Positions 8,144 through 25,072 of a DNA stretch of 34,746 nt are shown piece after piece (position 1 is the first letter of the stretch; every line of letters begins with the position of its first letter). The notes below the pieces were generated by a model. The model had not been told where the DNA came from. It saw only the letters and a list, made by a program, of their open reading frames with translations, and did not search any database. The DNA is from a virus. Made by a program: the position numbers and the translations under genes. The stretch lies in the UHGV virus genome UHGV-0079566; one strand, given 5' to 3'.

Positions 8144-9022
8144 GTGAGTATGCATCAAGTTGTCAGCTTTTCAGGTGGACGAACATCGGCTTATCTCGTT
8201 CATCTGATGGAAGCAAAGCGAAAAGCTGGCGCTAGCGTCCATTTCATTTTTATGGATACCGGCTGTGAACATCCTCTGACGTATCGCTTTATTCGTGAGG
8301 TTGTGAAGTTCTGGAACGTACCGCTAACGGTGTTGCAGGTCGATATAAATCCAGAACTTGGGCAGCCAAATGGTTATACGGAATGGGAACCAAAGGATAT
8401 TCAGACGCGAATGCCGGTGCTTAAACCGTTTATGGACATGGTTAAAAAGTACGGTACGCCATACATCGGCGGCGCGTTCTGTACTGACAGGCTAAAACTC
8501 ACCCCTTTCACGAAATATTGCGATGACCATTTTGGGCGAGGGAATTACATCACATGGCTGGGTATTCGTGCGGACGAACACCGCAGGCTGAAACCGAAAC
8601 CGGGCGTCCGGTATCTTGCAGAGCTGTCAGATTTTGATAAGTCGGATGTTATCCGGTGGTGGCGAAAACAACCTTTTGATTTGCAAATCCCGGAGCACCT
8701 AGGGAACTGTGTTTTTTGCATCAAAAAGTCAACGCAAAAGCTGGGGCTTGCATGTAAAGACGAACCTGGTCTGATGCGGGTTTTTAATGAACTGGTTACA
8801 GGTAAACACGTCCGGGATGGTCACCGAAAGACAAATAAAGACGTTATGTACCGTGGTCATCTGAGCCTTGACGGGATTGCCAGAATGTATGCCGACAGCG
8901 ACTACAGAAATTTGTATCAGGCGATGGTGCAAACCAGGCGATTCGATACCGGCTCGTGTTCAGAGTCATGTGAAATCTGGGGTGATCAATTGGAGTTGAA
9001 ATTCGAAGAGGTGGTGGCATGA
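8144..9022 (+). CDS. PAPS-reductase-like (PP-loop ATP pyrophosphatase superfamily) protein (292 aa)
   Basis: PP-loop-like SFSGGRTSAY near the N-terminus; C-terminal cysteine pair (CSESC). Confidence 0.7.
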   Translation: MSMHQVVSFSGGRTSAYLVHLMEAKRKAGASVHFIFMDTGCEHPLTYRFIREVVKFWNVPLTVLQVDINPELGQPNGYTEWEPKDIQTRMPVLKPFMDMVKKYGTPYIGGAFCTDRLKLTPFTKYCDDHFGRGNYITWLGIRADEHRRLKPKPGVRYLAELSDFDKSDVIRWWRKQPFDLQIPEHLGNCVFCIKKSTQKLGLACKDEPGLMRVFNELVTGKHVRDGHRKTNKDVMYRGHLSLDGIARMYADSDYRNLYQAMVQTRRFDTGSCSESCEIWGDQLELKFEEVVA

Positions 9023-9723
9023 CAACCAAAATTAACTATCAGGCACTACGTGAGATAGCAAAACAGGCAACACAGGGCGAATGGGTCGCGTTTATTTCGA
9101 CGGGTACAGGTACGTATGCTGTGCATACGCCCGGTGATAAACGATGTGAAGATGTTATCAAATGGACCGGCTTTGATGGGCTGAAAAACGCAGAGAACAA
9201 CGCTCGTTATGTTGCCGCATTCAACCCAAAGGTTGCACTGGAGCTACTTGGTGAAATTAAGCGCCTGGAGGACACAAATATTGATGCTATGTGCCGAATA
9301 GCACCGCTTGAGACTAAGCTCGCGGCGCTGGTGGCAGAGAACGCCGGGCTGAAACACGCAATGGCCGTAACTCTTGAGCATGTGTCGGTCACGGATGCAG
9401 GGCAGGCCGGAGTTGCTGCAATGATTATCAACGATGCCCTGCACCACAGCGAAACTCCAGCTACCGATGCTTTTCTGGCTGAAATTCGTGCGGAAGCACG
9501 CAACGAGGGGATTAACTATACCGCCAGCCGTCTTGCTGCTGCGTTCAATCACGGATTTATCAATAAGTCTTTGCGTGAAGTTTTCGACGTTACACGCATG
9601 ATTTTGTCAGCGAAAGAAGAGTTGGCTAATGAAGCGCATCCGATTGATGGCCTGTCTGGTGAATATGCGGAGAAATCCCTTGAAGAATGGGCGGAACAGA
9701 TTCGCAAAGGAAGCAGCCAGTGA
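9019..9723 (+). CDS. Ead/Ea22-like prophage protein (234 aa)
   Basis: N-terminus INYQALREIAKQATQGEW is typical of Ea22-like proteins; ATGA overlap with the upstream gene. Confidence 0.65.
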   Translation: MTTKINYQALREIAKQATQGEWVAFISTGTGTYAVHTPGDKRCEDVIKWTGFDGLKNAENNARYVAAFNPKVALELLGEIKRLEDTNIDAMCRIAPLETKLAALVAENAGLKHAMAVTLEHVSVTDAGQAGVAAMIINDALHHSETPATDAFLAEIRAEARNEGINYTASRLAAAFNHGFINKSLREVFDVTRMILSAKEELANEAHPIDGLSGEYAEKSLEEWAEQIRKGSSQ

Positions 9724-10010
9724 ATATCGACACGACAATAACGATCGATACGCTCCTAAATACCGGTCTGGCACTTCTCGGTTGGCTTTACATCATGTCC
9801 CGCACATGGCGATGGCTGGGTTCCATTTTCCTAAAACAGTGGAAAAAACGGCGCAAACAGGAACTACGCCAGAAGGCATTAGAAGCGTTCTATGACGCAT
9901 TTGAGCTTAGCCGCATTGAACCAGGTACAACAGCCAGGATAGCGACAAAAGGCGACCTGATGATAGTGATGTTCCGACAGGAGAGAGCAGAGAAAGGGGA
10001 ATCAGCATGA
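9720..10010 (+). CDS. Small membrane protein (about 96 aa from GTG) with one hydrophobic helix (LLNTGLALLGWLYIM)
   Basis: In frame with ORF 9687-10010; AAGGAAG Shine-Dalgarno upstream of GTG 9720, which overlaps the upstream stop. Confidence 0.4.
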   Translation: MNIDTTITIDTLLNTGLALLGWLYIMSRTWRWLGSIFLKQWKKRRKQELRQKALEAFYDAFELSRIEPGTTARIATKGDLMIVMFRQERAEKGESA

Positions 10011-10741
10011 AATTTTCCAAATTTTCTGAGTTGGTGAATCGTATTTTGTCCAACAACCACAGCCATCGTCGCGATATGGATGTAACAATCGTTGTTCATT
10101 CGCCTGGCAGCATTGGTTCAACACCTTCAGTTGAGGTTCAGTCAATTCACGCTGGTTTTGATTGGGATTCCGGGAAAGTGCTTATTTTCCCATCACAGCC
10201 ACTGACCACGCTAACACCAGAACAGATTACTGATATCACTGATAGTGTGCGCAAAGGTCAGTCTTGGCACGCATATCAGGAATACAAGAAGCATCAAGAG
10301 CAGTTGGAAAAATTGTCGATTGAACTGGATGCCGCAAAACAGCGCATTGCAGAGCTGGAGGGTAATCGCACGGCGCTGGCAGTGGAGAATGAGCTGGCTC
10401 GTAAGGCAGTTCAGGCATTCTGCGATGTTGTTGGCGACAACACCGAGGTTATCGCTGAGGTGGTTGGGCGAGATGGCGTTCTGGTTATTTTGGAGGCCAT
10501 GAAGGCAACAGGAAATATGCCAGCCACCGATGCTTTCCTGGCTGAAGTGCGGGCGCAGGGCGTGGATGCTGCTATAGAAGCTGCAAAAAATCTGGTGGCC
10601 CAAGAATATGAGTATAAGGATTTCAAAGCGGCGCAGAGTGATTGCTGTATGCACCCTGGTTCAGACCTGGTAGGGAAGGTTGAAATGACTGAGTGGTTAG
10701 TTGACTTTGCTGCCCAGCTTCGCAAAGGAGGCAAACAGTGA
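10007..10741 (+). CDS. Ea22-like paralog (244 aa) sharing the C-terminal ATDAFLAE(V/I)RA segment with 9019-9723
   Basis: ORF track; ATGA overlap; central coiled-coil. Confidence 0.6.
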   Translation: MKFSKFSELVNRILSNNHSHRRDMDVTIVVHSPGSIGSTPSVEVQSIHAGFDWDSGKVLIFPSQPLTTLTPEQITDITDSVRKGQSWHAYQEYKKHQEQLEKLSIELDAAKQRIAELEGNRTALAVENELARKAVQAFCDVVGDNTEVIAEVVGRDGVLVILEAMKATGNMPATDAFLAEVRAQGVDAAIEAAKNLVAQEYEYKDFKAAQSDCCMHPGSDLVGKVEMTEWLVDFAAQLRKGGKQ

Positions 10742-11232
10742 GCAAGATTGACTATCAGGCACTGCGTGAGGCGGCAGAGAAGGCTACGAAAGGTAAGTGG
10801 GCTGTTGAATTCGACGATGAGATTTACTCCACTGACGGCATAAACCATGAGCAAATAGCTATGGTGTTCAGTGAAAACGAATCTCGTGATGCTGAATTCA
10901 TCGCCGCAGCCAATCCGGCTACCGTCTTGGCGCTTCTGGATGAACGGGAAAGAAACCTGCAATACATCAAAAGCCGCGATCAGGAGAACGAGGATATTGC
11001 GCTAACGGTAGGGAAGCTGCGCGTTGAGCTTGAAGCAGAAAAACAGCGGGCAAAAGTTCTATTTATGGAAAATGCTCGGCTTAAGTCAGGCATAGCCGGT
11101 CTGATACACCTCGGTATTCGATATGCAGATGTTGAGGTCATGAAAATTGCTGGAGATGCCCAGCTTTCTACCCCATGCACTGACAGCATCATAAACAGCA
11201 TTGCAACAGGCATTCGCATCAAAGGAGAGTGA
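10738..11232 (+). CDS. Ea22-like paralog (164 aa) sharing the N-terminal module (IDYQALREAAEKATKGKW); ends with TGIRIKGE
   Basis: ORF track; AGGAGG Shine-Dalgarno; GTG start overlapping the upstream stop. Confidence 0.6.
   Translation: MSKIDYQALREAAEKATKGKWAVEFDDEIYSTDGINHEQIAMVFSENESRDAEFIAAANPATVLALLDERERNLQYIKSRDQENEDIALTVGKLRVELEAEKQRAKVLFMENARLKSGIAGLIHLGIRYADVEVMKIAGDAQLSTPCTDSIINSIATGIRIKGE
11209..11232 (+). repeat. Copy 1 of a 24-bp direct repeat ggcattcgcatcaaaggagagtga (encodes the ...GIRIKGE* C-terminus and the next gene's Shine-Dalgarno)
   Basis: Exact repeat read at 11209-11232 and 11703-11726. Confidence 0.9.
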
Positions 11233-11234
11233 GA

Positions 11235-11726
11235 ATGCAAATTTCACCGGTTACTCTTCGTGTTGCGAAGGCGTTTATATCCAGACATCACCGACACAAT
11301 AAACCCCCGGTGGGGCATAAATTCAGCATTGGTCTGAGAAATGATGCCGGAGAATTGATAGGTGTGGCGACAGCCGGTAGACCTGTTGCACGACATTTGG
11401 ACGATGGATTAACGCTTGAAGTAAATCGCACATGTACCACAGGAGAACGCAACGCTAACAGCGCGCTTTATGGTGCTGTCTGGCGGGCAGCAAAGGCTAT
11501 GGGTTATCAACGTTGTATTACGTACACCCAGGCAGATGAATCAGGAGCATCTCTCCGCGCAGCTGGTTTTGTTCGTGTGAAAGAGCTTCCTCCAAGAAAA
11601 AGCTGGGCGGAATCAAGCGTCGCCCTGCGGAGTAAACGCGATCCGGTCGGAAACGGTGGTGTTCCTCGTGTGCTCTGGGAAATCAGGAGAATGAGTACCA
11701 CTGGCATTCGCATCAAAGGAGAGTGA
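11235..11726 (+). CDS. Hypothetical protein (163 aa); also ends in ...TGIRIKGE
   Basis: ORF track frame 11229-11726; ATG 11235 preceded by AAGGAGAG. Confidence 0.55.
   Translation: MQISPVTLRVAKAFISRHHRHNKPPVGHKFSIGLRNDAGELIGVATAGRPVARHLDDGLTLEVNRTCTTGERNANSALYGAVWRAAKAMGYQRCITYTQADESGASLRAAGFVRVKELPPRKSWAESSVALRSKRDPVGNGGVPRVLWEIRRMSTTGIRIKGE
11703..11726 (+). repeat. Copy 2 of the 24-bp direct repeat ggcattcgcatcaaaggagagtga
   Basis: Exact match to 11209-11232. Confidence 0.9.
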
Positions 11727-11727
11727 T

Positions 11728-11991
11728 ATGGCAACTTTGACAAAAAAAGAACAAGCATGGTTGAGCGAATTACAGGACGTTCTTGATCGCTGTCCATCAC
11801 CGAAAAAAATTGGTTTTTACACCATTGGCGATAAAAGCATTTACCTGTATGACCTGCGCCGCATGGATGAAATCATGGAGGCTCTTGATAATCGTTCGTC
11901 GATGGATTGGTGTGTTGCTGTTCATGATATGAATGCAGGGTTTGATGAAAAGATTTTGTTCCCCTCATCAGTTGAAAGCACTGCGGGTTAA
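11728..11991 (+). CDS. Hypothetical protein (87 aa)
   Basis: ORF track; ATG 2 nt after the upstream stop, using the Shine-Dalgarno inside the repeat. Confidence 0.5.
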   Translation: MATLTKKEQAWLSELQDVLDRCPSPKKIGFYTIGDKSIYLYDLRRMDEIMEALDNRSSMDWCVAVHDMNAGFDEKILFPSSVESTAG

Positions 11992-12001
11992 GGAGTAACA
12001 C

Positions 12002-12877
12002 ATGACCACTATTACCAAAGAACGTATTGAATTGTTCATTAAAAATCCGCTTGAAAACGGGCTTACCCGTGGTGAACAAATGGAACTGGCACGGATTGCG
12101 CTGGCATCGCTGGAAGCAGATCCAGTTAAACGAGTTAACTCAGATCAGATGCGCCGAGTCTGCTTAGAAGCTAATCGCCATTTAGATAAATATGACGCGA
12201 TGGCGAAAGAGGTAAATAAGTTGCTTGGACGCATCGCCCCGCCAGCGCCGGTAGTGCCGGAAGAAGCAACTCCGGAAAACGTAGAAATGCTCTCTGGCTA
12301 TGTTTCCACGTACAAATTAACCGATAGCGAGCGCGATATTGCTGCCGAAATATGGAACGCCTGCCGCACCGCCATGCTTCAGTCCGGAAACTTTCGGGAA
12401 AGCAAGAATTCGTCAACCAATAATTTTCGGGAAATCGCGGAAACGTCAACCAACTATCCGGTAATTCCTAGTGAGGTGTTGTCCGCAATCTTGAAGGTTG
12501 CCAAGATTCGTGCCGATTTCGATGATTTTGACGGTGACAGGCGAGGTATCGGTGATTGTCTGGATGAGGCTGAGCAAGAGCTTATCGTTACCATTAACAA
12601 ATATGCCAGTCAGTTGGCAGCAGAACCTATAGCGCCTAATGACGTTCGAGAGCAGACAGCCATTCCGCAAGTTCCGGTAACTCCGGATGGTTGGATAAGC
12701 TGTAGTGAGCGAATGCCCGCTCAAGATGATTGGATTTTAATTTATTCAAAGCACGGCGAGTATATGGCAGGACAGGTACAAGAGGAATACGTGGAGTTGA
12801 GCGACGGCACTTTATCGTGGTTAGGGAACGCCTTGTTCTGGATGCCTCTACCAGAACCGCCTCAGGAGGCAAAATGA
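12002..12877 (+). CDS. Hypothetical protein (291 aa) with a C-terminal DUF551-like segment (W...MP...W...W.PLPEPP)
   Basis: ORF track; C-terminal GWISCSERMPAQDDWILIY...LFWMPLPEPP resembles DUF551. Confidence 0.6.
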   Translation: MTTITKERIELFIKNPLENGLTRGEQMELARIALASLEADPVKRVNSDQMRRVCLEANRHLDKYDAMAKEVNKLLGRIAPPAPVVPEEATPENVEMLSGYVSTYKLTDSERDIAAEIWNACRTAMLQSGNFRESKNSSTNNFREIAETSTNYPVIPSEVLSAILKVAKIRADFDDFDGDRRGIGDCLDEAEQELIVTINKYASQLAAEPIAPNDVREQTAIPQVPVTPDGWISCSERMPAQDDWILIYSKHGEYMAGQVQEEYVELSDGTLSWLGNALFWMPLPEPPQEAK

Positions 12878-13134
12878 TGGATGTCAAAGAGAAGATTTTG
12901 CAGGTGATGCGTTCCCGGGCTGCCCTGCAAGATAAAGCTCTCGGCGGGGAATATCCATTCAGGATGGCAACCTGGAATCTGCGGTTGGCAATGGAGAAGG
13001 AATTTCCTGATGAAGAATGGCGTTCGGCAGATTTGCGCAAAATTCTTATGGAGATGGCTAAAGACGGAACAGTATCCAAAGATACCCATGCCAGCCGGAT
13101 TGGTCAGGCGGTATGGAGACTGGAGGTGAGATAA
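12874..13134 (+). CDS. Hypothetical protein (86 aa)
   Basis: AGGAGG Shine-Dalgarno; ATGA overlap with the upstream stop; in frame with ORF 12730-13134. Confidence 0.5.
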   Translation: MMDVKEKILQVMRSRAALQDKALGGEYPFRMATWNLRLAMEKEFPDEEWRSADLRKILMEMAKDGTVSKDTHASRIGQAVWRLEVR

Positions 13135-13241
13135 TGAGCTGGCCTGAAGCATTCGCAACGGTAGGAATTGTGATGGCGGCAGCACTGGGTTTGTATTCAA
13201 TTTGTCGCTGGTGGCAGGCTTGTTTCGGTTCTATTTGGTGA
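13134..13241 (+). CDS. Small hydrophobic peptide (35 aa, MSWPEAFATVGIVMAAALGLYSICRWWQACFGSIW)
   Basis: GGAGGTGAG Shine-Dalgarno; TAATG stop/start overlap; hand-translated. Confidence 0.35.
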   Translation: MSWPEAFATVGIVMAAALGLYSICRWWQACFGSIW

Positions 13242-13416
13242 CTACCGAGATGACTTCTTCCAACCAGAAGAAGTTGATGTGGTGCGAGAGGCATTAAACG
13301 AGTTAAGTGTTGATAACGATGATGCTCATGCGGAAATCATCCAAAAAATGGAACTGCTAACTCACTAAATTATCAATTATGGTGCTATCACCTACGACAC
13401 CGAGAGAAAATTTATA

Positions 13417-13539
13417 ATGTCAAAAGTAAATGTTTTGATTTTTTCAGCAATTGTTGGCTTTGGTTTTACTGCCGGAGTGCAGATTTATATTACGTGGGAA
13501 AAAATCATCAACTACGCATGGAGTTGTTTTATTAAGTGA
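13417..13539 (+). CDS. Small hydrophobic peptide (40 aa, MSKVNVLIFSAIVGFGFTAGVQIYITWEKIINYAWSCFIK)
   Basis: Hand-translated ORF in an AT-rich segment; purine-rich stretch upstream. Confidence 0.35.
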   Translation: MSKVNVLIFSAIVGFGFTAGVQIYITWEKIINYAWSCFIK

Positions 13540-13546
13540 GGTAGGT

Positions 13547-13840
13547 ATGTGGAGAGGTAATAGTCATGGCAAAAGCCAGATGATACTTACCGAATATCAG
13601 TTTGACCATAAAACCAATAAATCACGTTCAGTATATTTGCTTCGGCACAATAGCCGCGTAAGGAATACCGTGCTGGAGCAAAATCTGACTGTTGAAATGG
13701 ATAATTACGGGGGCTTCAAGCCAACAATTTCGCTTGATGATTTTCCTCGTGGTTTAAGCGAAAGAGAAGCAATGCTGAAATTAGCAGAATGGCTACAAAG
13801 ATTAAGCATTGCTATTGAAGATAACTGGTCTGAACCTTAA
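13547..13840 (+). CDS. Hypothetical protein (about 97 aa from ATG 13547)
   Basis: In frame with ORF 13451-13840; AGGTAGGT Shine-Dalgarno directly upstream. Confidence 0.45.
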   Translation: MWRGNSHGKSQMILTEYQFDHKTNKSRSVYLLRHNSRVRNTVLEQNLTVEMDNYGGFKPTISLDDFPRGLSEREAMLKLAEWLQRLSIAIEDNWSEP

Positions 13841-13846
13841 ATTTAT

Positions 13847-14221
13847 ATGATGACACTAAAACATTTTCTTGACCGCCCATTATGGGCGGCAGCCGCAGGC
13901 TATGACTTTAATTATATGGATTGCATGTCTTATACCGCCAATGCATACGACCATTCCTTCAGTCTGCTGTTTAATTCTTTAAGAATATTGCCGCAAACAG
14001 AAGTTGGAGAGCTTCATTTATGGCTATTGGGCTTTATCGCGGCTGGAGTTGGTATTGCTGTATGGCCTTTTATTTTCTGGTTGGTGGCTGTTGTAGTGTG
14101 GTTTAAGTGCAAGACGTACCGGAAAAAGTATTTCTTAGGTGATGGAATGACTGATATTGCCAAAATGAACATTGAAAAATGGACTAAGGAATGTGAAAAG
14201 AAATGGCGCAAAAAGAAATGA
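13847..14221 (+). CDS. Hypothetical membrane protein (124 aa; two adjacent hydrophobic helices, Lys-rich C-terminus)
   Basis: ORF track; hydrophobic stretch LWLLGFIAAGVGIAVWPFIFWLVAVVVWF. Confidence 0.5.
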   Translation: MMTLKHFLDRPLWAAAAGYDFNYMDCMSYTANAYDHSFSLLFNSLRILPQTEVGELHLWLLGFIAAGVGIAVWPFIFWLVAVVVWFKCKTYRKKYFLGDGMTDIAKMNIEKWTKECEKKWRKKK

Positions 14222-14853
14222 CCAGAATCACTGAAGAGCGCATATCAGAGATTATTTCCCGTATCGAAATGTATGGTCACGGTGCTGGATATACGGCAGA
14301 TGAAGTATTGGAAATAGCCCAGCAGATGCTGGCCTTGAGACAAAAAGAGCAACATGAAAGTAATACGTGTAGATTGAATTTTGAGCATTGGCTGGAACAG
14401 CAACGCGGGAAAATCGATGTGGACTGTGGTTGTGTGTCCACTGAAACATTCATGCACTGGCTGCGGGTAGCTTACGAGGCTGGCAACTATCCGGATATTC
14501 CGGATAGTTCGGTGCCAGCACCAGGAAAGGGCGTCACCGGTGAACGTATCCGAATTAAGCCGCATGTTTATCGCGAACTGGTTAACCGTCTCCACGATAC
14601 AGCGATCAAGTGTGCTGGCACCCAGCAATTACGAGAAAGAATTAGCCGTGTTTTGGGCGACGTTATTACACCAGATCATCATAAACAAGCCGAGAAAAGT
14701 GGCCTGGAAAGGTGTCGCCTTGAGGCGGCATTAAACATTAAGCCGGGGCATACGCTTGGCATTATTGATGCACTATTGGTTCATAAGATGGCCAGGGCTT
14801 TATTGCCGCTGGTGGCTGAAAAGCATGAGGTGGACCATGCCAACGAAAGCTGA
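14203..14853 (+). CDS. Hypothetical protein (216 aa; start could instead be ATG 14218)
   Basis: ORF track; protein-like composition. Confidence 0.55.
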   Translation: MAQKEMTRITEERISEIISRIEMYGHGAGYTADEVLEIAQQMLALRQKEQHESNTCRLNFEHWLEQQRGKIDVDCGCVSTETFMHWLRVAYEAGNYPDIPDSSVPAPGKGVTGERIRIKPHVYRELVNRLHDTAIKCAGTQQLRERISRVLGDVITPDHHKQAEKSGLERCRLEAALNIKPGHTLGIIDALLVHKMARALLPLVAEKHEVDHANES

Positions 14854-15121
14854 ATTACAGGTGCGCGTAGATGAGCTTGAAAAAGAGAACGCGAGCCTCA
14901 AAAAAATGCTGTCGCGGGCGGAAAGGGAATTATCAGGCAAATTATTGCCAGAAGAACTGCCACCAGCAGATATACCTGATCGAGTGTCCTGGTGGATGAA
15001 GTATTTCCGTGCACCGTGGGAGGCGTTTTGGTGCTACGACCATCGCAGATGGTGTGATGAACTTGATAGCAATTTTCCCTACTTTGCGGAAGGGAACACC
15101 TGCCCTCAATGCAGGGGATAG
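14837..15121 (+). CDS. Hypothetical protein (about 94 aa) with N-terminal coiled-coil and C-terminal Cys/His/Trp-rich tail (CPQC)
   Basis: In frame with ORF 14756-15121; GAGGTGGA Shine-Dalgarno upstream of ATG 14837. Confidence 0.45.
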   Translation: MPTKAELQVRVDELEKENASLKKMLSRAERELSGKLLPEELPPADIPDRVSWWMKYFRAPWEAFWCYDHRRWCDELDSNFPYFAEGNTCPQCRG

Positions 15122-15456
15122 CATTTGACGAAATCGATCACCCTATCCTGAACTTCAGAAAGAAGGTCTTTTTCACGCGCCAGGACGTCAGGATATTGAC
15201 GTTCTGGCCTTACCAGATGCCGGAGCTTCCCATTAAGCAGAATGGCCTCAGAAAACACTTTTACGCTGTGCTTTATCCCCTCTGTTTCACTTTTCAGCGT
15301 AAAAATAAAGCGCAATTGCTTATTAGCCTGATTCGGATTCAATACACGAATTTGCAGTTCGTCTATGCTGTTTCGCAATGGGATTGATGCCACCACACTG
15401 GTGCAGTCTCTGATTGTCTGAATTGAACGGCTAACATTGAGAACGTTATTGTGCAT
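15106..15456 (-). CDS. Hypothetical protein (116 aa) on the opposite strand, convergent with the upstream operon
   Basis: ORF track; protein-like sequence whereas the overlapping plus-strand ORF looks like noise; no convincing Shine-Dalgarno at the annotated ATG. Confidence 0.4.
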   Translation of the reverse strand: MHNNVLNVSRSIQTIRDCTSVVASIPLRNSIDELQIRVLNPNQANKQLRFIFTLKSETEGIKHSVKVFSEAILLNGKLRHLVRPERQYPDVLAREKDLLSEVQDRVIDFVKCYPLH

Positions 15457-15488
15457 GTGCCTGATCCACTAACTCCTGGAGGTTTCTT

Positions 15489-15740
15489 GTGTCAGATCGA
15501 AATATAGCAGCTAAAAGCCAGGAAGAGCGAGACAAGGTGAACGTAGACCTTGCCGCCAGCGGCGTTGCTTACAAAGAACGGCTGAATATACCTGTGATTG
15601 CAGAGCAGGTGGCCCGTGAGCAACCGGAAAACCTGCGCGCCTATTTCATGGAACGGCTACGGCACTACCGGCAGTTAAGCCTCCAGTTGCCAAAAGGGAG
15701 CGATCCGGTGTATCAGAACGAGGATGCACCAAAAAAATAA
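15489..15740 (+). CDS. Hypothetical protein (83 aa), GTG start
   Basis: GGAGG Shine-Dalgarno 6 nt upstream of GTG 15489. Confidence 0.5.
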
Positions 15741-15825
15741 CGGCAAGATGGGGGAGAAATGTGATTAGCCCCCAGCGTGGCGCGCCTACAAACCCCGCTT
15801 TCACAAACTATGCCTTTTCAATGTA

Positions 15826-15845
15826 TACTGTATGAATAAACAGTA
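15826..15845 (+). promoter_or_regulatory. LexA (SOS) box TACTGTATGAATAAACAGTA upstream of humD
   Basis: Perfect CTGT-N8-ACAG read in sequence, 20-40 nt upstream of the humD ATG. Confidence 0.75.
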
Positions 15846-15863
15846 TCATTGAGGTAAAACGCT

Positions 15864-16253
15864 ATGGGCTTCCCTTCTCCTGCGGCGGATTATGTTGAAA
15901 GCCGAATTTCTCTTGATCAGCAGATAATTAGACATCCTTCAGCGACCTACTTCATGCGGGCAGCTGATAGCCATCACCGTGAGGGAATATTGCAGGGAGC
16001 TTTGCTGGTGGTTGATTCCTCGCTTACTCCGGTTGATGGTTCTCTGCTTGTGTGCGCTATGGAGGGTGAATATCGCATAAAGAGATACAGGAAGTATCCG
16101 CGCCAGCACCTGGAGGACTTAAGCACCGGGAAGAAAGAGGCGTTACCAGTAGATGACGATGGATACACGGGCAGTAATGCTGTTTTTGGTGTGATCACTC
16201 ATGTCATCAATGATGCCCGAAGTGGGGAATTTGATGATTGTCCGGTTATTTAA
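15864..16253 (+). CDS. humD: HumD, UmuD-like SOS mutagenesis protein homologue (129 aa)
   Basis: Protein recognised as UmuD-like, placed directly upstream of phd-doc as in P1, with a LexA box and a GAGGT Shine-Dalgarno. Confidence 0.8.
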   Translation: MGFPSPAADYVESRISLDQQIIRHPSATYFMRAADSHHREGILQGALLVVDSSLTPVDGSLLVCAMEGEYRIKRYRKYPRQHLEDLSTGKKEALPVDDDGYTGSNAVFGVITHVINDARSGEFDDCPVI

Positions 16254-16288
16254 GCTGCAAAGTGCTGGTGCTTTATGCCTGTGAAGTT

Positions 16289-16318
16289 TATAATTGTGTA
16301 CACATAACGAGTACACGA
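16289..16318 (+). promoter_or_regulatory. phd-doc promoter/operator region: -10 TATAAT followed by palindrome TGTGTACACA and a GTACAC half-site
   Basis: Read in sequence immediately upstream of phd; Phd autorepression via palindromic sites is established for P1. Confidence 0.5.
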
Positions 16319-16325
16319 GGTGTTT

Positions 16326-16547
16326 ATGCAATCCATTAACTTCCGTACCGCGCGTGGCAACCTTTCTGAAGTGCTCAACAATGTTGAAGCCGGGGAAGAG
16401 GTTGAAATCACCCGCAGAGGCCGTGAGCCAGCAGTAATTGTCAGCAAGGCTACTTTCGAAGCCTACAAAAAAGCGGCGCTGGATGCTGAATTTGCATCCC
16501 TGTTTGACACCCTGGACTCCACCAACAAGGAACTGGTTAACCGATAA
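16326..16547 (+). CDS. phd: Phd antitoxin (73 aa)
   Basis: Protein [19 protein letters not shown]... recognised as P1 Phd; TAATG overlap with doc. Confidence 0.92.
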
Positions 16548-16927
16548 TGAGACATATATCACCGGAAGAACTTGTTGCGCTTCATGATGCGAATATAAGC
16601 CGCTACGGCGGCCTGCCGGGAATGTCTGATCCGGGTAGGGCAGAGGCCATTATCGGGAGAGTTCAGGCCAGAGTTGCCTACGAAGAGATCACCGACCTTT
16701 TCGAAGTCTCCGCCACCTACCTGGTGGCTACAGCGAGAGGGCATATATTCAATGATGCCAATAAGCGTACCGCGCTAAACAGTGCGCTGCTATTTCTACG
16801 CCGTAACGGGGTGCAGGTATTTGATTCACCTGAACTGGCAGACCTTACCGTAGGCGCTGCGACCGGAGAGATATCTGTATCTTCTGTCGCCGACACGTTA
16901 CGTAGATTGTATGGTTCCGCAGAGTAG
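16547..16927 (+). CDS. doc: Doc toxin, Fic-fold kinase (126 aa)
   Basis: Fic-type motif [10 protein letters not shown]; position and size match P1 Doc. Confidence 0.92.
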
Positions 16928-17111
16928 ATTAATGGCACGTAAATACAACAAATTGTCCCGTGAAGCGTTAAAGATGCTTCTTGATGGCGTGAGTCGCCGC
17001 GAGGTAAAGCAATACCTGGTTGGTAAGCAAATTGGTGCCAGGACCGCTATTGCTGTGTTATGCCGTCAGGAAATGGTTGTGCTTAAACAGAGAATGCCGG
17101 GCAGCAGATAA
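16911..17111 (+). CDS. Small protein downstream of doc (pdcA-like position); start may be ATG 16932
   Basis: ORF track; gene order doc-pdcA-pdcB-lpa recalled from P1. Confidence 0.4.
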
Positions 17112-17138
17112 AGCCCAATCAGTGATGAAAGGTGTGAT

Positions 17139-18182
17139 GTGAAAGCCGTAATTACTCCCTTTGTACAAAAAGAGCTTGGCGTCGCCACATTCAAAGTGGA
17201 TCAGGAAGTCAGAAAGCTGGTGGAGGCTGGCCGTAAATTTATTATGGAGCCGGTGCCGCGTGAGTTAATCGAGCACATGGACGACGGCCTCGTTGTTTCC
17301 GAGCAGACTATGGCAACAAATGAGGCGTTGCAGCCGTTTTTTAACAGCGATGAACTGTTTCGCCGTATTGGTGGAATTGACGCGCTGGTGGCGTGGTTGC
17401 GTAGGAAAGAGGGTCAATGCCAGGCCGCAGATCGTAGTTGGTGTGACAACCATATTGTCCACGCTGAACGAGACAATAGCGCGGTGTTGTTGTGCTGGCA
17501 TCACGATAACCATTACCGGATGCGTGGTTTTAATGAGCTGAAAGAAACGCTGCATAATAATCGCGTTAACTGGATACTGGATGTCGCCCGTCAGGAAATG
17601 GGGCTTTCAGATGGCCATGATTTAAGTATTCAGGAACTGTGCTGGTGGGCTTTCATGCGCAACATGATGCACCTGATGCCGGAAGAAGTTTGCCGTATAT
17701 CAATAAATAAGATGAAAGCCGCAACGCAGGATAGCGGACCTCTGAAAGAGGCGGATATTCGCCCGTATGACGATCGCGCTACAGCATATGTTCAGATGAT
17801 GGAAGAACGCGCCGCGCCGATGCGTGCAAAAGTATGCCCTGTGGATGTTGACTCCGACCCTGGCATGGCGCATTTCAAAATACCAAAACTTCAATCGCTA
17901 AAATTGCCCGAGTACATGGATTTTGTGGCTTCCCGTCCATGCTGTGGCTGTGGAGCTGCGGGAGCTGGCGCTCACATTACGCCTTATATCGTTCGTCATA
18001 GTCGATTATGCGCGCATGACATTTATGCTATTCCTCTGTGCCAGTCATGCCAGCGTGATATTGAGCGTGACCGCGATAATTGGGAGAAGACGCACGGTAG
18101 GCTGGCGATGCATCAACGATTGTTCTTTGATTACGCGCTTGGAGTCGGCGCTATCACAAGTCATTCGTCGAGCGTTAGATAA
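17139..18182 (+). CDS. Hypothetical protein (347 aa) in the pdcB-like position; C-terminal Cys-rich region (CCGC...C..C...C..C)
   Basis: ORF track; GTG start with AAAGGTG Shine-Dalgarno. Confidence 0.5.
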
Positions 18183-18183
18183 A

Positions 18184-18200
18184 ATTGCTCTAATGTATTG
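18184..18200 (+). promoter_or_regulatory. C1-operator-like site ATTGCTCTAATGTATTG upstream of lpa
   Basis: Read directly; P1 lpa is known to be C1-controlled. Confidence 0.55.
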
Positions 18201-18270
18201 CTATTTCTTTAATCGAGGGTATTATATTCGACGTTGATTAGTTGACATGGGCTAATCAGTAGGTGACAGG

Positions 18271-18723
18271 ATGTTACTTAACTGGCAGGGACGCCACTTC
18301 ATGGAAATAAATCACTCACGAATAACATCGTACGAGATTGCGGATTACATGATCCGCACTAAATCTCTTCTATCAGCGAAAGAACTCGCAGCAATTCTTG
18401 AAAAGGAATACCCGCATCTGGATGTCGATAAGCGCGATGTTTATCTGCGCTTAAAGGCTATCGCTGTGTCTAAGTATTCGTCTGTTTTGATTGATGACAG
18501 TACACGCCCACGTAGATTTCAGATCCACTCTCTGAATCCTGAATTCTTTCGCCGCAGCCGCGCTCCGCGCCGGTTTGATGAAAAACTCCAGAACGAACTC
18601 TATATGACGCAGGACGAAAAGGAACGCCGGGAGCACCAGCCTTGGGTGATGGCGCGTCAACTTTTCAATAAGGTGGTCCGTCAGCACCGTCATTACGGTA
18701 ATGCCACATCCGCACGTATCTGA
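18271..18723 (+). CDS. lpa: Lpa-like late promoter activator (150 aa)
   Basis: Position between pdcB and pacA with an upstream C1 operator, as in P1; AGGTGA Shine-Dalgarno. Confidence 0.65.
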   Translation: MLLNWQGRHFMEINHSRITSYEIADYMIRTKSLLSAKELAAILEKEYPHLDVDKRDVYLRLKAIAVSKYSSVLIDDSTRPRRFQIHSLNPEFFRRSRAPRRFDEKLQNELYMTQDEKERREHQPWVMARQLFNKVVRQHRHYGNATSARI

Positions 18724-18809
18724 TTGATTGCTTGCCCGTTCCGGGCCTTTTGACATGTGACTTTCGTTACCCTCGCGTCAAAAAGAGTTTTATACGAAAG
18801 GAAGCATAA

Positions 18810-20003
18810 GTGACCTGGGACGATCACAAGAAGAATTTTGCTCGCCTGGCGCGAGATGGTGGTTACACCATCGCACAGTATGCCGCCGAGTTTAATCTTA
18901 ACCCTAATACCGCACGTCGTTATCTCCGTGCCTTCAAAGAAGACACCAGGACAGCGGACAGCCGCAAGCCAAATAAGCCAGTCAGGAAGCCTCTAAAAAG
19001 CATGATCATTGATCACGCTAATGATCAACGTGCAGGTGATCACATTGTGGCTGAAATGGCTGAAAAACAAAGAGTTAATGCTGTTGTCAGTGCCGCAGTC
19101 GAGAACGCTAAGCGCCAAAATAAGCGCATAAATGATCGTTCTGATGATCATGACGTGATCACCCGCGCCCACCGTACCTTACGTGATCGCCTGGAACGCG
19201 ACACCCTGGATGATGATGGTGAACGCTTTGAATTCGAAGCTGGCGATTACCTGATAGATAACGTTGAAGCGCGGAAGGCCGCGCGCGCTATGTTGCGTCG
19301 GTCCGGGGCCGATGTTCTGGAAACCACTCTTCTGGAAAAGTCTCTTTCTCATCTCCTTATGCTGGAGAACGCCAGGGATACGTGTATTCGTCTGGTGCAG
19401 GAAATGCGCGATCAGCAAAAAGACGATGATGAAGGTACTCCGCCTGAATACCGTATCGCGAGCATGCTAAACAGCTGTTCCGCGCAGATAAGCAGCCTGA
19501 TCAACACCATTTACAGCATCCGGAATAACTATCGAAAAGAAAGCCGGGAGGCGGAAAAGCACGCTTTGTCTATGGGGCAAGCTGGCATTGTTAAGCTGGC
19601 ATACGAACGAAAGCGTGAAAATAACTGGTCAGTGCTGGAAGCAGCTGAATTCATCGAGGCGCATGGCGGGAAAGTGCCGCCCCTGATGCTGGAGCAAATC
19701 AAAGCCGATCTGCGTGCTCCGAAGACCAATACCGATGATGAGGAAAGGCAAACAGCCGTCGGTGGCCCTTCTCTTGAAGATCTGGACAAAGTTGCGCGAG
19801 AACGGGCCGCCAACCGCCGCGCCGATGCCGCATTGTGGATTGAGCAGCGTAGGGAAGAAATCGCCGATATCGTTGATACAGGCGGTTATGGAGATGTTGA
19901 TACTGAAGGTGTATCAAACGAACCATGGCTGGAACAAGACCTGGACGAAGACGAGGAGGAAGACGAAGAAGTTACCCGCAAGCTATACGGGGATGATGAT
20001 TAA
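18810..20003 (+). CDS. pacA: PacA, terminase small/recognition subunit (397 aa)
   Basis: Size and N-terminus [18 protein letters not shown]... match P1 PacA; contains the pac site; GTG start. Confidence 0.85.
19003..19161 (+). other. pac packaging site: seven TGATCA/G hexamers in two clusters (4 at 19003-19042, 3 at 19133-19161), each containing a Dam GATC
   Basis: Hexamers read directly inside pacA; the 4+3 architecture matches the P1 pac site. Confidence 0.8.
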
Positions 20004-22938: not shown

Positions 22939-23004
22939 TGTCAAACAACTATGAAAAACAATCCAGTTTTTGGCTGGTGGAGTGGGATTTTTCTCTCAAA
23001 ATTT

Positions 23005-23021
23005 ATTGCTCTAATAATTCT
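23005..23021 (+). promoter_or_regulatory. C1-operator-like site ATTGCTCTAATAATTCT followed by ttgattttta (same cassette as 7367-7393)
   Basis: Read directly, about 45 bp before loxP. Confidence 0.65.
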
Positions 23022-23064
23022 TGATTTTTATGCGCAACTGGACGTAAACTCCTCTTCGGACCTA

Positions 23065-24565: not shown

Positions 24566-24582
24566 ATTGCTCTAATTATTTG
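24566..24582 (+). promoter_or_regulatory. C1-operator-like site ATTGCTCTAATTATTTG just downstream of cre
   Basis: Read directly. Confidence 0.6.
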
Positions 24583-24598
24583 ATATTTATGGTGACAC

Positions 24599-25042: not shown

Positions 25043-25072
25043 ATTGCTCTAATTGATTGCTATAATTTAGCC
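25043..25072 (+). promoter_or_regulatory. Tandem C1-operator-like sites (ATTGCTCTAATTGATTG and ATTGCTATAATTTAGCC), the second containing a -10 TATAAT; candidate ref promoter/operator
   Basis: Read directly; C1/Bof control of ref is established for P1. Confidence 0.6.

Follow-up and report, generated by a model that had tools for sequence, protein, structure and literature searches.

A 24-base-pair direct repeat around an XF1762 gene in a P1-like phage-plasmid is probably a phage boundary sequence for module exchange

The viral genome UHGV-0079566, analysed here over its full 34,746 nucleotides (nt) and referred to as the window, carries the same 24-base-pair (bp) sequence, GGCATTCGCATCAAAGGAGAGTGA, at the 3′ ends of two unrelated genes. 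Comparison with phages, plasmids and prophages suggests that this 24-mer is probably a phage boundary sequence, that is, a translation-coupling junction at which homologous recombination reassorts modules. The element is conserved between phages, it joins upstream and downstream genes in many combinations, and breakpoints of synteny fall on it. In the window its two copies delimit a 494-bp cassette which is found elsewhere in filled, empty and native-end states, and whose protein bears a C-terminal tail foreign to its family.

The initial annotation had reported an exact repeat at 11209-11232 and 11703-11726, and a search of the whole window bore this out. Both copies lie on the + strand, they are the only exact ones (0 expected), and no third copy was found in the window with up to 3 mismatches allowed. 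Copy 1 (11209-11232) makes up the final 7 codons and the TGA of the open reading frame (ORF) 10738-11232, which ends ...SIATGIRIKGE, and copy 2 (11703-11726) the final 7 codons and the TGA of ORF 11235-11726, which ends ...MSTTGIRIKGE; each copy hence encodes GIRIKGE plus stop. The description of the two proteins as otherwise unrelated also holds, as they belong to different families and share only TGIRIKGE, 8 amino acids (aa), in a BLASTP comparison. Each copy further contains the hexamer AAGGAG, at 11222-11227 in copy 1 and at 11716-11721 in copy 2, located 7 nt ahead of the ATG at 11235 and 6 nt ahead of the ATG at 11728, respectively. In agreement with the original proposal, this placement makes AAGGAG the predicted Shine-Dalgarno sequence of the next gene. 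The stop-to-start gaps measure 2 nt after copy 1 and 1 nt after copy 2, and both sites fit the pattern of a translationally coupled gene junction, in which the Shine-Dalgarno sequence is embedded in the upstream coding end and stop and start codons are adjacent. A repeat search extended the similarity between the two sites to 42 nt at 86%, the 18 nt beyond the 24-mer being weak; this extra similarity amounts to 10/15 matches at the two gene starts and is possibly due to chance.

An exact-match scan recovered the 24-mer from at least 120 viral contigs and from 38 genome contigs. As 28 of these 38 genome contigs are 99-100% identical to phage lambda, the 24-mer was recognised as the 3′ end of lambda ea22 (BLAST to J02459). 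The lambda-like contigs lie in assemblies of Streptomyces, Streptococcus, Shewanella, Pseudomonas, Bacillus and others, several of them are ~48.4-48.5 kb long and several have a coverage near 1x; they reflect lambda contamination of public assemblies and not the distribution of the element. In phage HK620 the exact 24-mer, preceded by CGCGCCGCT, forms the 3′ end of hkaG at the hkaG/hkaF boundary, and additional copies reside in Salmonella phage VSe13 (Lederbergvirus), in Stx phages, in P1-like plasmids and in E. coli prophages. The linker is, in other words, common to related phages able to meet in one host. The search for further copies in related phages, which had been recommended from the outset, was in this way productive, and the opposing case, a repeat unique to the two positions in the window, is contradicted by the many copies elsewhere.

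The sequence contexts of the element were compared using all occurrences of the 24-mer with ≤3 mismatches and 150 nt on both sides (n = 243, comprising 150 unique contexts). The contexts fall into 15 upstream classes and 22 downstream classes which are joined in 70 combinations, with 2-9 different downstream partners for 11 of the upstream classes and 2-9 upstream partners for 14 of the downstream classes. Across the 5,632 pairs that differ on both sides, the island of exact identity has a median length of 28 nt (quartiles 26-30, range 24-46). Among pairs with a common downstream side and different upstream sides, homology stops within 12 nt of the element in 332/363 (91%); likewise, with a common upstream side and different downstream sides, it stops within 13 nt of the element in 362/379 (96%). 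Conservation climbs from ~9 nt before the 24-mer (consensus CGCGCCGCT) up to the following ATG, and the start codon is found 1 nt after the TGA in 142 of 193 occurrences. Among the upstream proteins that carry a GIRIKGE tail are an HNH endonuclease, XF1762, Ea22-like proteins of mosaic structure and two proteins of other types, 102 and 187 aa long; another tailed protein has the N-terminus of the window ORF 10007-10741, and a variant tail, NIGIKGE, occurs on a DUF551-type protein. Downstream of the element at least 25 kinds of protein are encoded, and the 3′ half of the Ead/Ea22-like gene of the window by itself adjoins 9 different downstream genes elsewhere. A short conserved sequence is thus located at a gene boundary with unrelated DNA on either side in different phages. 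Together with the empty site in VSe13 described below, this substantiates the earlier view of the repeat as a conserved gene-boundary linker.

The breakpoints of homology around the two copies are in line with these observations. BLAST searches, which covered 5,426 complete E. coli genomes, partly matched the interval 10738-11991 in 352 phage, 551 plasmid and 2,805 E. coli records, and no record covers 80% of this interval. Alignments start at query position 474 or end at 495-497, corresponding to linker copy 1, and start at 978-987 or end at 993-1008, corresponding to linker copy 2. Such breakpoints at the two copies were seen against phages, plasmids and 2,610 E. coli genomes. The closest plasmid, CP148519, is collinear with the window up to exactly 11232, and homology is back at 11988, where it resumes at the stop/Shine-Dalgarno of the 87-aa gene (TAAGGAG overlap). 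The alignment ends at both copies, the break in CP148519 and the exact empty site agree with the expectation that the copies would coincide with synteny breakpoints.

The segment bounded by the two copies, at 11233-11726 on the + strand, is a unit of 494 bp consisting of the XF1762 gene and one linker copy, which is present or absent relative to the empty site. A four-way alignment revealed an exact 494-bp empty site in Salmonella phage VSe13, in which a single linker joins the Ea22-like end and the 87-aa gene known from the window. In the same alignment, the window and plasmid pB2C_96 part only left of copy 1, a place at which the plasmid carries the variant AACATTGGCATCAAAGGAGAGTGA; E. coli FREC5 matches the window as far as the end of copy 2 and is unrelated right after it. 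A distance of 494 bp separates the linkers in every one of the 33 loci that have XF1762 between two of them. A third state is provided by a Klebsiella prophage (L304), in which XF1762 retains a native end, ...EIRRMK, with an ATGA overlapping the start of a DUF551 gene, and in which nucleotide similarity to the window extends through GAAATCAGGAGAATGA and then stops.

The search for XF1762 homologues returned 5,662 proteins at E ≤ 1e-5. Most of the 120 homologues listed have 150-154 aa and end ...RVLWEIRR followed by 0-2 residues, and the ending MSTTGIRIKGE is among these 120 a feature of the E. coli phage form alone. Tails of like flavour (AAGIKVEVK, AAGIQVIEGEDGE, TTAGIKLQIEGE) are seen on some relatives from other genera. 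Judged from these comparisons, the GIRIKGE tail is foreign to XF1762 and derives from the linker. In a second Klebsiella prophage (K. pneumoniae CP152810, L306), XF1762 is located between two diverged linkers of the variant GCCGCTGGCATCAAGGTGGAGG, CGT(GC/AG)CGCCGCTGGCATCAAGGTGGAGG, which occupy 2466-2493 and 2951-2978 of that locus, 485 bp apart (28 nt, 93% identity, 22 nt exact). The arrangement reads as an independent replicate of the architecture with another linker variant. The cassette of this prophage adjoins KwaA/KwaB (Kiwa defence system), encoded on the opposite strand at 3296-4881.

These patterns can be accommodated by the following mechanism. The element packs into ~24-33 bp the last 8-11 upstream codons ((RAA)GIRIKGE), AAGGAG as a predicted strong Shine-Dalgarno sequence, the stop and the abutting next start, and the pool sharing this boundary would comprise the lambda exo-xis/P22 ea regions and the variable pmgT-upfO segment of the P1-like phage-plasmid. 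Because many unrelated phage segments bear the same stretch, homologous recombination within ~24-46 bp of identity could join any left module to any right module. The crossovers would be driven by homology and fall inside the element, with RecA of the host or an annealing recombinase of phage origin (Red-beta/Erf/RecT type) as candidate enzymes; the joint would remain in frame and leave downstream translation, from the predicted Shine-Dalgarno sequence, intact. Insertion of the XF1762 gene between the ea22-like and the 87-aa gene would place one linker at each junction, from which the direct repeat would follow, and the GIRIKGE of XF1762 would be a by-product of the joint and no part of the family. 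The presence of two copies would in turn make the cassette deletable via repeat recombination or slippage, and a precise loss of 494 bp is predicted from the direct repeat. Linker polymorphisms at positions 1-2 (GG/GA/AA) and 6 (C/G) are found in all combinations, which is consistent with crossovers inside the linker; recurrent mutation could also yield them. Regarding the module exchange by short homology that the initial annotation had put forward, the expected pattern is present in the combinations, the breakpoints and the empty site, and recombination itself is what this pattern suggests.

A number of points weigh against homologous exchange at the element. The support comes wholly from sequence comparison. 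Most loci were retrieved because they contain the exact 24-mer, so that the sample is biased in favour of identical copies, and many of the database matches are redundant, lambda contamination included. In anchored, unbiased samples, linker variants do appear (GGT.., GAC.., ..TTGGC.., AAC..). In one such sample of viral contigs (n = 128), defined by the first 20 nt of the 87-aa gene, the sequence ahead of this gene is a GIRIKGE-type linker in ~60 cases, among them the variants GGT.., GAC.. and ..TTGGC.., and in 62 cases another boundary, ..TAAGGAAAACTGAT / ...CCGTATAAGGAAAACTGAT, which keeps only the Shine-Dalgarno/stop/start geometry. This core is also the most conserved part of the element, and selection for translation accounts for part of the conservation. 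As the exact upstream form GGCATTCGC is present in only 4/37 XF1762 cassettes, two perfectly identical copies, as in the window, represent the rarer situation. Finally, at 24-33 bp the element comes close to the shortest homology that supports efficient RecA-dependent exchange, reportedly ~23-27 bp (Shen & Huang 1986).

It is conceivable, albeit rather doubtful, that the GIRIKGE linker and its genus-specific variants (GCCGCTGGCATCAAGGTGGAGG in Klebsiella) constitute a maintained in-frame, translation-competent "adaptor" system, kept uniform by selection for exchangeability. The uniformity would then not merely stem from translation constraints and gene conversion. If it were true, unrelated temperate lineages (P1-like phage-plasmids, P22-like and lambda-like prophages) would trade accessory or anti-defence cassettes without a dedicated recombinase, a trade that integrons carry out with one.

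Alternatively, the element could be a translation-coupling junction and nothing more. Illegitimate joints would then form anywhere, selection would keep those that fall on a functional signal, and the 24-mer would not act as a recombination substrate. In the conservation profile, AAGGAG, TGA and ATG are indeed the most invariant part, the 62 alternative boundaries of the 87-aa gene retain only AAGGA-A--TGAT ATG, and the neighbouring exchange has its right-hand breakpoint, 11988, in another stop/Shine-Dalgarno overlap (TAAGGAG). Since those boundaries keep the core only, the 3′ half of the linker appears constrained by translation and the 5′ half conserved beyond this need. The 5′ half (GGCATTCGCATC, often after CGCGCCGCT) is not needed for a Shine-Dalgarno sequence, yet it is identical, wobble positions included, across otherwise unrelated contexts. 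Moreover, illegitimate joints would not recreate one island of 24-46 nt again and again between unrelated sequences, in 70 combinations; the foreign 8-aa tail on XF1762, the HNH endonuclease and others is the expected product of a crossover in a shared stretch. A junction shaped by translation alone is on these grounds considered unlikely.

Selection could also act on the peptide, with GIRIKGE as a functional C-terminal sequence (e.g. a docking or turnover tag) and the DNA identity secondary. The tail is found on at least eight unrelated protein bodies, all Ea22 proteins studied end in K/R-G-E, the significance of which was called unknown (PMC7093339), and the tails AAGIKVEVK and AAGIQVIEGEDGE of XF1762 proteins from other genera are of like flavour. 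A degenerate scan that preserved the peptide nevertheless found 105 of 120 copies to be exact and 14 to carry a single synonymous change, so that hardly any wobble position varies; selection acting on the peptide alone would not demand this. In addition, most XF1762 relatives, 83-86%-identical ones included, are without such a tail, the same downstream gene also takes upstream genes ending ...PYKEN, and the Pfam and NCBIfam domains end well short of the tail. A peptide function as the cause of the repeat is accordingly regarded as quite improbable.

The constant 494-bp unit between direct repeats, and the existence of both filled and empty sites, might bring to mind a target-site duplication or a dedicated recombinase site, with XF1762 as an integron- or transposon-like cassette. 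This is very unlikely. The same sequence bounds more than 20 different genes and is present as a single copy in most loci, and the sequence flanking XF1762 is the same or nearly so in all 33 loci and bounds other genes too. Unlike target-site duplications, the 24-bp duplication is identical at every site. The cassette unit encodes XF1762 alone and no recombinase, its ends are without terminal inverted repeats (only short internal chance pairs were found), and the base composition displays no step at the cassette. With regard to an integron-type attC site, neither an inverted repeat at the cassette ends nor, in the P1-like context, an associated integrase was found, and no recombinase was consistently nearby in the gene neighbourhoods inspected, from P1-like plasmids to lambda-/P22-like prophages. 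No significant RNA structure was detected in 71-nt segments over each copy (z = -1.0 and -0.05 versus shuffles), and Rfam gave no match in 9000-13500 at E ≤ 1. Finally, that the two copies match by chance, or arose by a local duplication found in this genome only, is compatible with there being just two of them in the window but can be dismissed, as the 24-mer was absent from all 100 dinucleotide-preserving shuffles of the window, is present in hundreds of copies elsewhere, at least 120 viral contigs among them, in diverse contexts, and terminates two unrelated genes.

The three genes connected by the linkers are all encoded on the + strand. The left module, at 10738-11232, encodes an Ead/Ea22-like protein of 164 aa which matches Pfam PF13935 (Ead_Ea22) with E = 4.7e-33 and 115.1 bits (cut-off 27) over aa 2-133, leaving the GIRIKGE tail outside the domain. 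Similarly, the 163-aa protein (counted from the ATG) of the XF1762 gene at 11235-11726 matches NCBIfam NF045478 (XF1762_fam) with E = 5e-61 and 204.7 bits (cut-off 50) over aa 3-136, and its C-terminal tail lies outside the model. The Pfam Mom model PF25680 scored 22.4 bits against this protein, which is under the cut-off, and many XF1762 homologues bear a precomputed match to the same model. From these matches, the XF1762 family is possibly an acyltransferase-fold DNA-modification or anti-restriction gene. The right module is a hypothetical gene of 87 aa called as an ORF at 11728-11991, with its start after the Shine-Dalgarno sequence in linker copy 2; its protein gave no family match in Pfam or NCBIfam.

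The window as a whole is a P1-like phage-plasmid with a Punavirus backbone (pmgS, pap, ..., hot, humD, phd/doc, pdcB, lpa, pacA), and its positions 5000-20000 align at 97-98% to P1, P7, RCS47, SJ46 and ~95-kb E. coli plasmids. The P1 segment pmgT-pmgV-upfM-upfO is largely replaced, from about 7.65 to 15.5 kb, by small + strand genes of the lambda exo-xis/P22 ea type, among them a PAPS-reductase-like gene, three Ea22-like genes, DUF4752, XF1762, DUF551 and others. P1 homology left within this block is confined to short patches at 7886-7971 and 14472-14818, and related P1-like plasmids differ in their assortments of accessory genes. The interval ~7650-15500 looks like a hypervariable accessory region common to unrelated phage types.

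In a promoter/terminator scan, promoter-like sites were less frequent in the interval 7000-15500 than in shuffled sequence. On the + strand of this interval the scan picked up just two, at 7339 and 12498, neither of them close to a junction. The junction genes are presumably read from a C1-controlled promoter at ~7.37 kb. The motif ATTGCTCTAATAA(A/T)T recurs in intergenic positions at 5225-5245, 7358-7392, 18184-18204, 22996-23030, 24566-24586 and 25043-25063. The first three of these sites align with the C1-repressor operators Op86a, Op88 (OpmgT) and Op94 (Olpa) of the annotated P1 genome AF234173, which identifies the ATTGCTCTAATAA repeats, by position, as known C1 operators. An assignment of these repeats as P1 late-promoter boxes was rejected, as their positions are those of the C1 operators.

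Similarity is also seen among the Ea22-type genes of the window. The 59-nt segments 9027-9085 and 10743-10801 are 73% identical and correspond to the N-termini of two Ea22-like genes (KI(N/D)YQALRE...), and an internal ATDAFLAE(I/V)RA segment is common to the proteins of 9019-9723 and 10007-10741. Tandem genes of the Ea22 type are here mosaics in their own right. A second boundary sequence, CTTCGCAAAGGAGGCA..CAGTGA (...QLRKGGKQ plus stop), was noted at 10718-10741, where it overlaps a GTG start and is followed by GCAAGATTGACTATCAG. It is almost identical at the hkaH/hkaG boundary of HK620 (L309, hkaH 3′ end at 3507) and has a looser relative at 9700-9723 of the window. The pattern ATTCGCA..AAAGGA..GTGA is common to the CTTCGCAAAGGAGGCA boundary and the 24-mer, and suggests that they may share descent from an ea22 3′ end. 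A further boundary with a Shine-Dalgarno sequence is the stop/Shine-Dalgarno overlap TTAAGGAGTAACACATG ahead of DUF551 genes, located at 11988-12004 in the window. Many of the downstream genes begin alike, with ATGACCAC(T)AT(A/T)ACC (MTTIT).

The concept of a boundary sequence is already known. Short conserved sequences at lambdoid gene boundaries have been proposed as sites of homologous module exchange, an idea attributed to Susskind & Botstein 1978 and, for HK620, to Clark et al. 2001 (PMC3029335, PMC2327257). The present element resembles them in being short, located at gene boundaries and flanked by unrelated DNA, and in its proposed role as an exchange site; HK620 itself carries both the 24-mer with CGCGCCGCT, at hkaG/hkaF, and CTTCGCAAAGGAGGCA..CAGTGA, at hkaH/hkaG. 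It differs from them in its occurrence in a P1-like phage-plasmid, in forming an exact direct repeat on both sides of one cassette, and in lying inside coding sequence, which gives an 8-residue tail to unrelated proteins. It is a well-documented new instance that would not surprise a specialist, and the accepted picture of phage evolution is unchanged; new are the P1-like context, the Klebsiella variant, the exact double copy around the XF1762 (Mom-like) cassette and the number of contexts counted. Whether phage mosaicism arises by homologous exchange at linkers or by illegitimate recombination and selection is an old, unsettled question, for which the element offers a clean natural test case: an island of 24-33 bp in 70 combinations and three phage lineages, present in lambda and HK620 and hence easy to manipulate, with one cassette in filled, empty and "native-end" states.

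A second point of comparison is the K/R-G-E ('+GE') end of all Ea22 proteins studied, which was treated as a motif at the protein level and whose significance was called unknown (Dydecka et al. 2020, PMC7093339). Lambda Ea22 and the Ea22-like protein of the window both end ...IKGE. The NMR study of Ea22 offers nothing usable on these terminal residues. In contrast to a protein motif, the codons of K-G-E, AAA GGA GAG, here form the predicted Shine-Dalgarno sequence and part of the DNA linker, and also end proteins other than Ea22. The '+GE' end would in this manner be explained as a translated Shine-Dalgarno sequence and linker. For annotation, this carries the warning that several unrelated small phage proteins owe their last 8 residues to the junction and not to their family.

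Plausible enzymology for exchange at such short islands is offered by Rad52-like relaxed recombination. Red works efficiently on homology that is short or diverged (Martinsohn et al. 2008, PMC2327257), and phage annealing recombinases in general handle short or diverged homology well and are a source of mosaicism (PMC2327257; De Paepe et al. 2014, PMC3945230). Several of the linker loci encode Bet/Exo, an Erf-type recombinase or anti-RecBCD functions nearby. The cited studies, however, concern diverged homology over hundreds of bases ("shoulders"), whereas the islands described here comprise ~28 nt of exact identity without shoulders. Integron cassettes, lastly, are likewise arrays of small promoterless genes, exchanged as units at a recurrent short site and read from an upstream promoter. 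Unlike in integrons, there is here no attC-like imperfect palindrome and no dedicated integrase, and the site consists of coding sequence and a ribosome-binding site; the resemblance is limited to the outcome.

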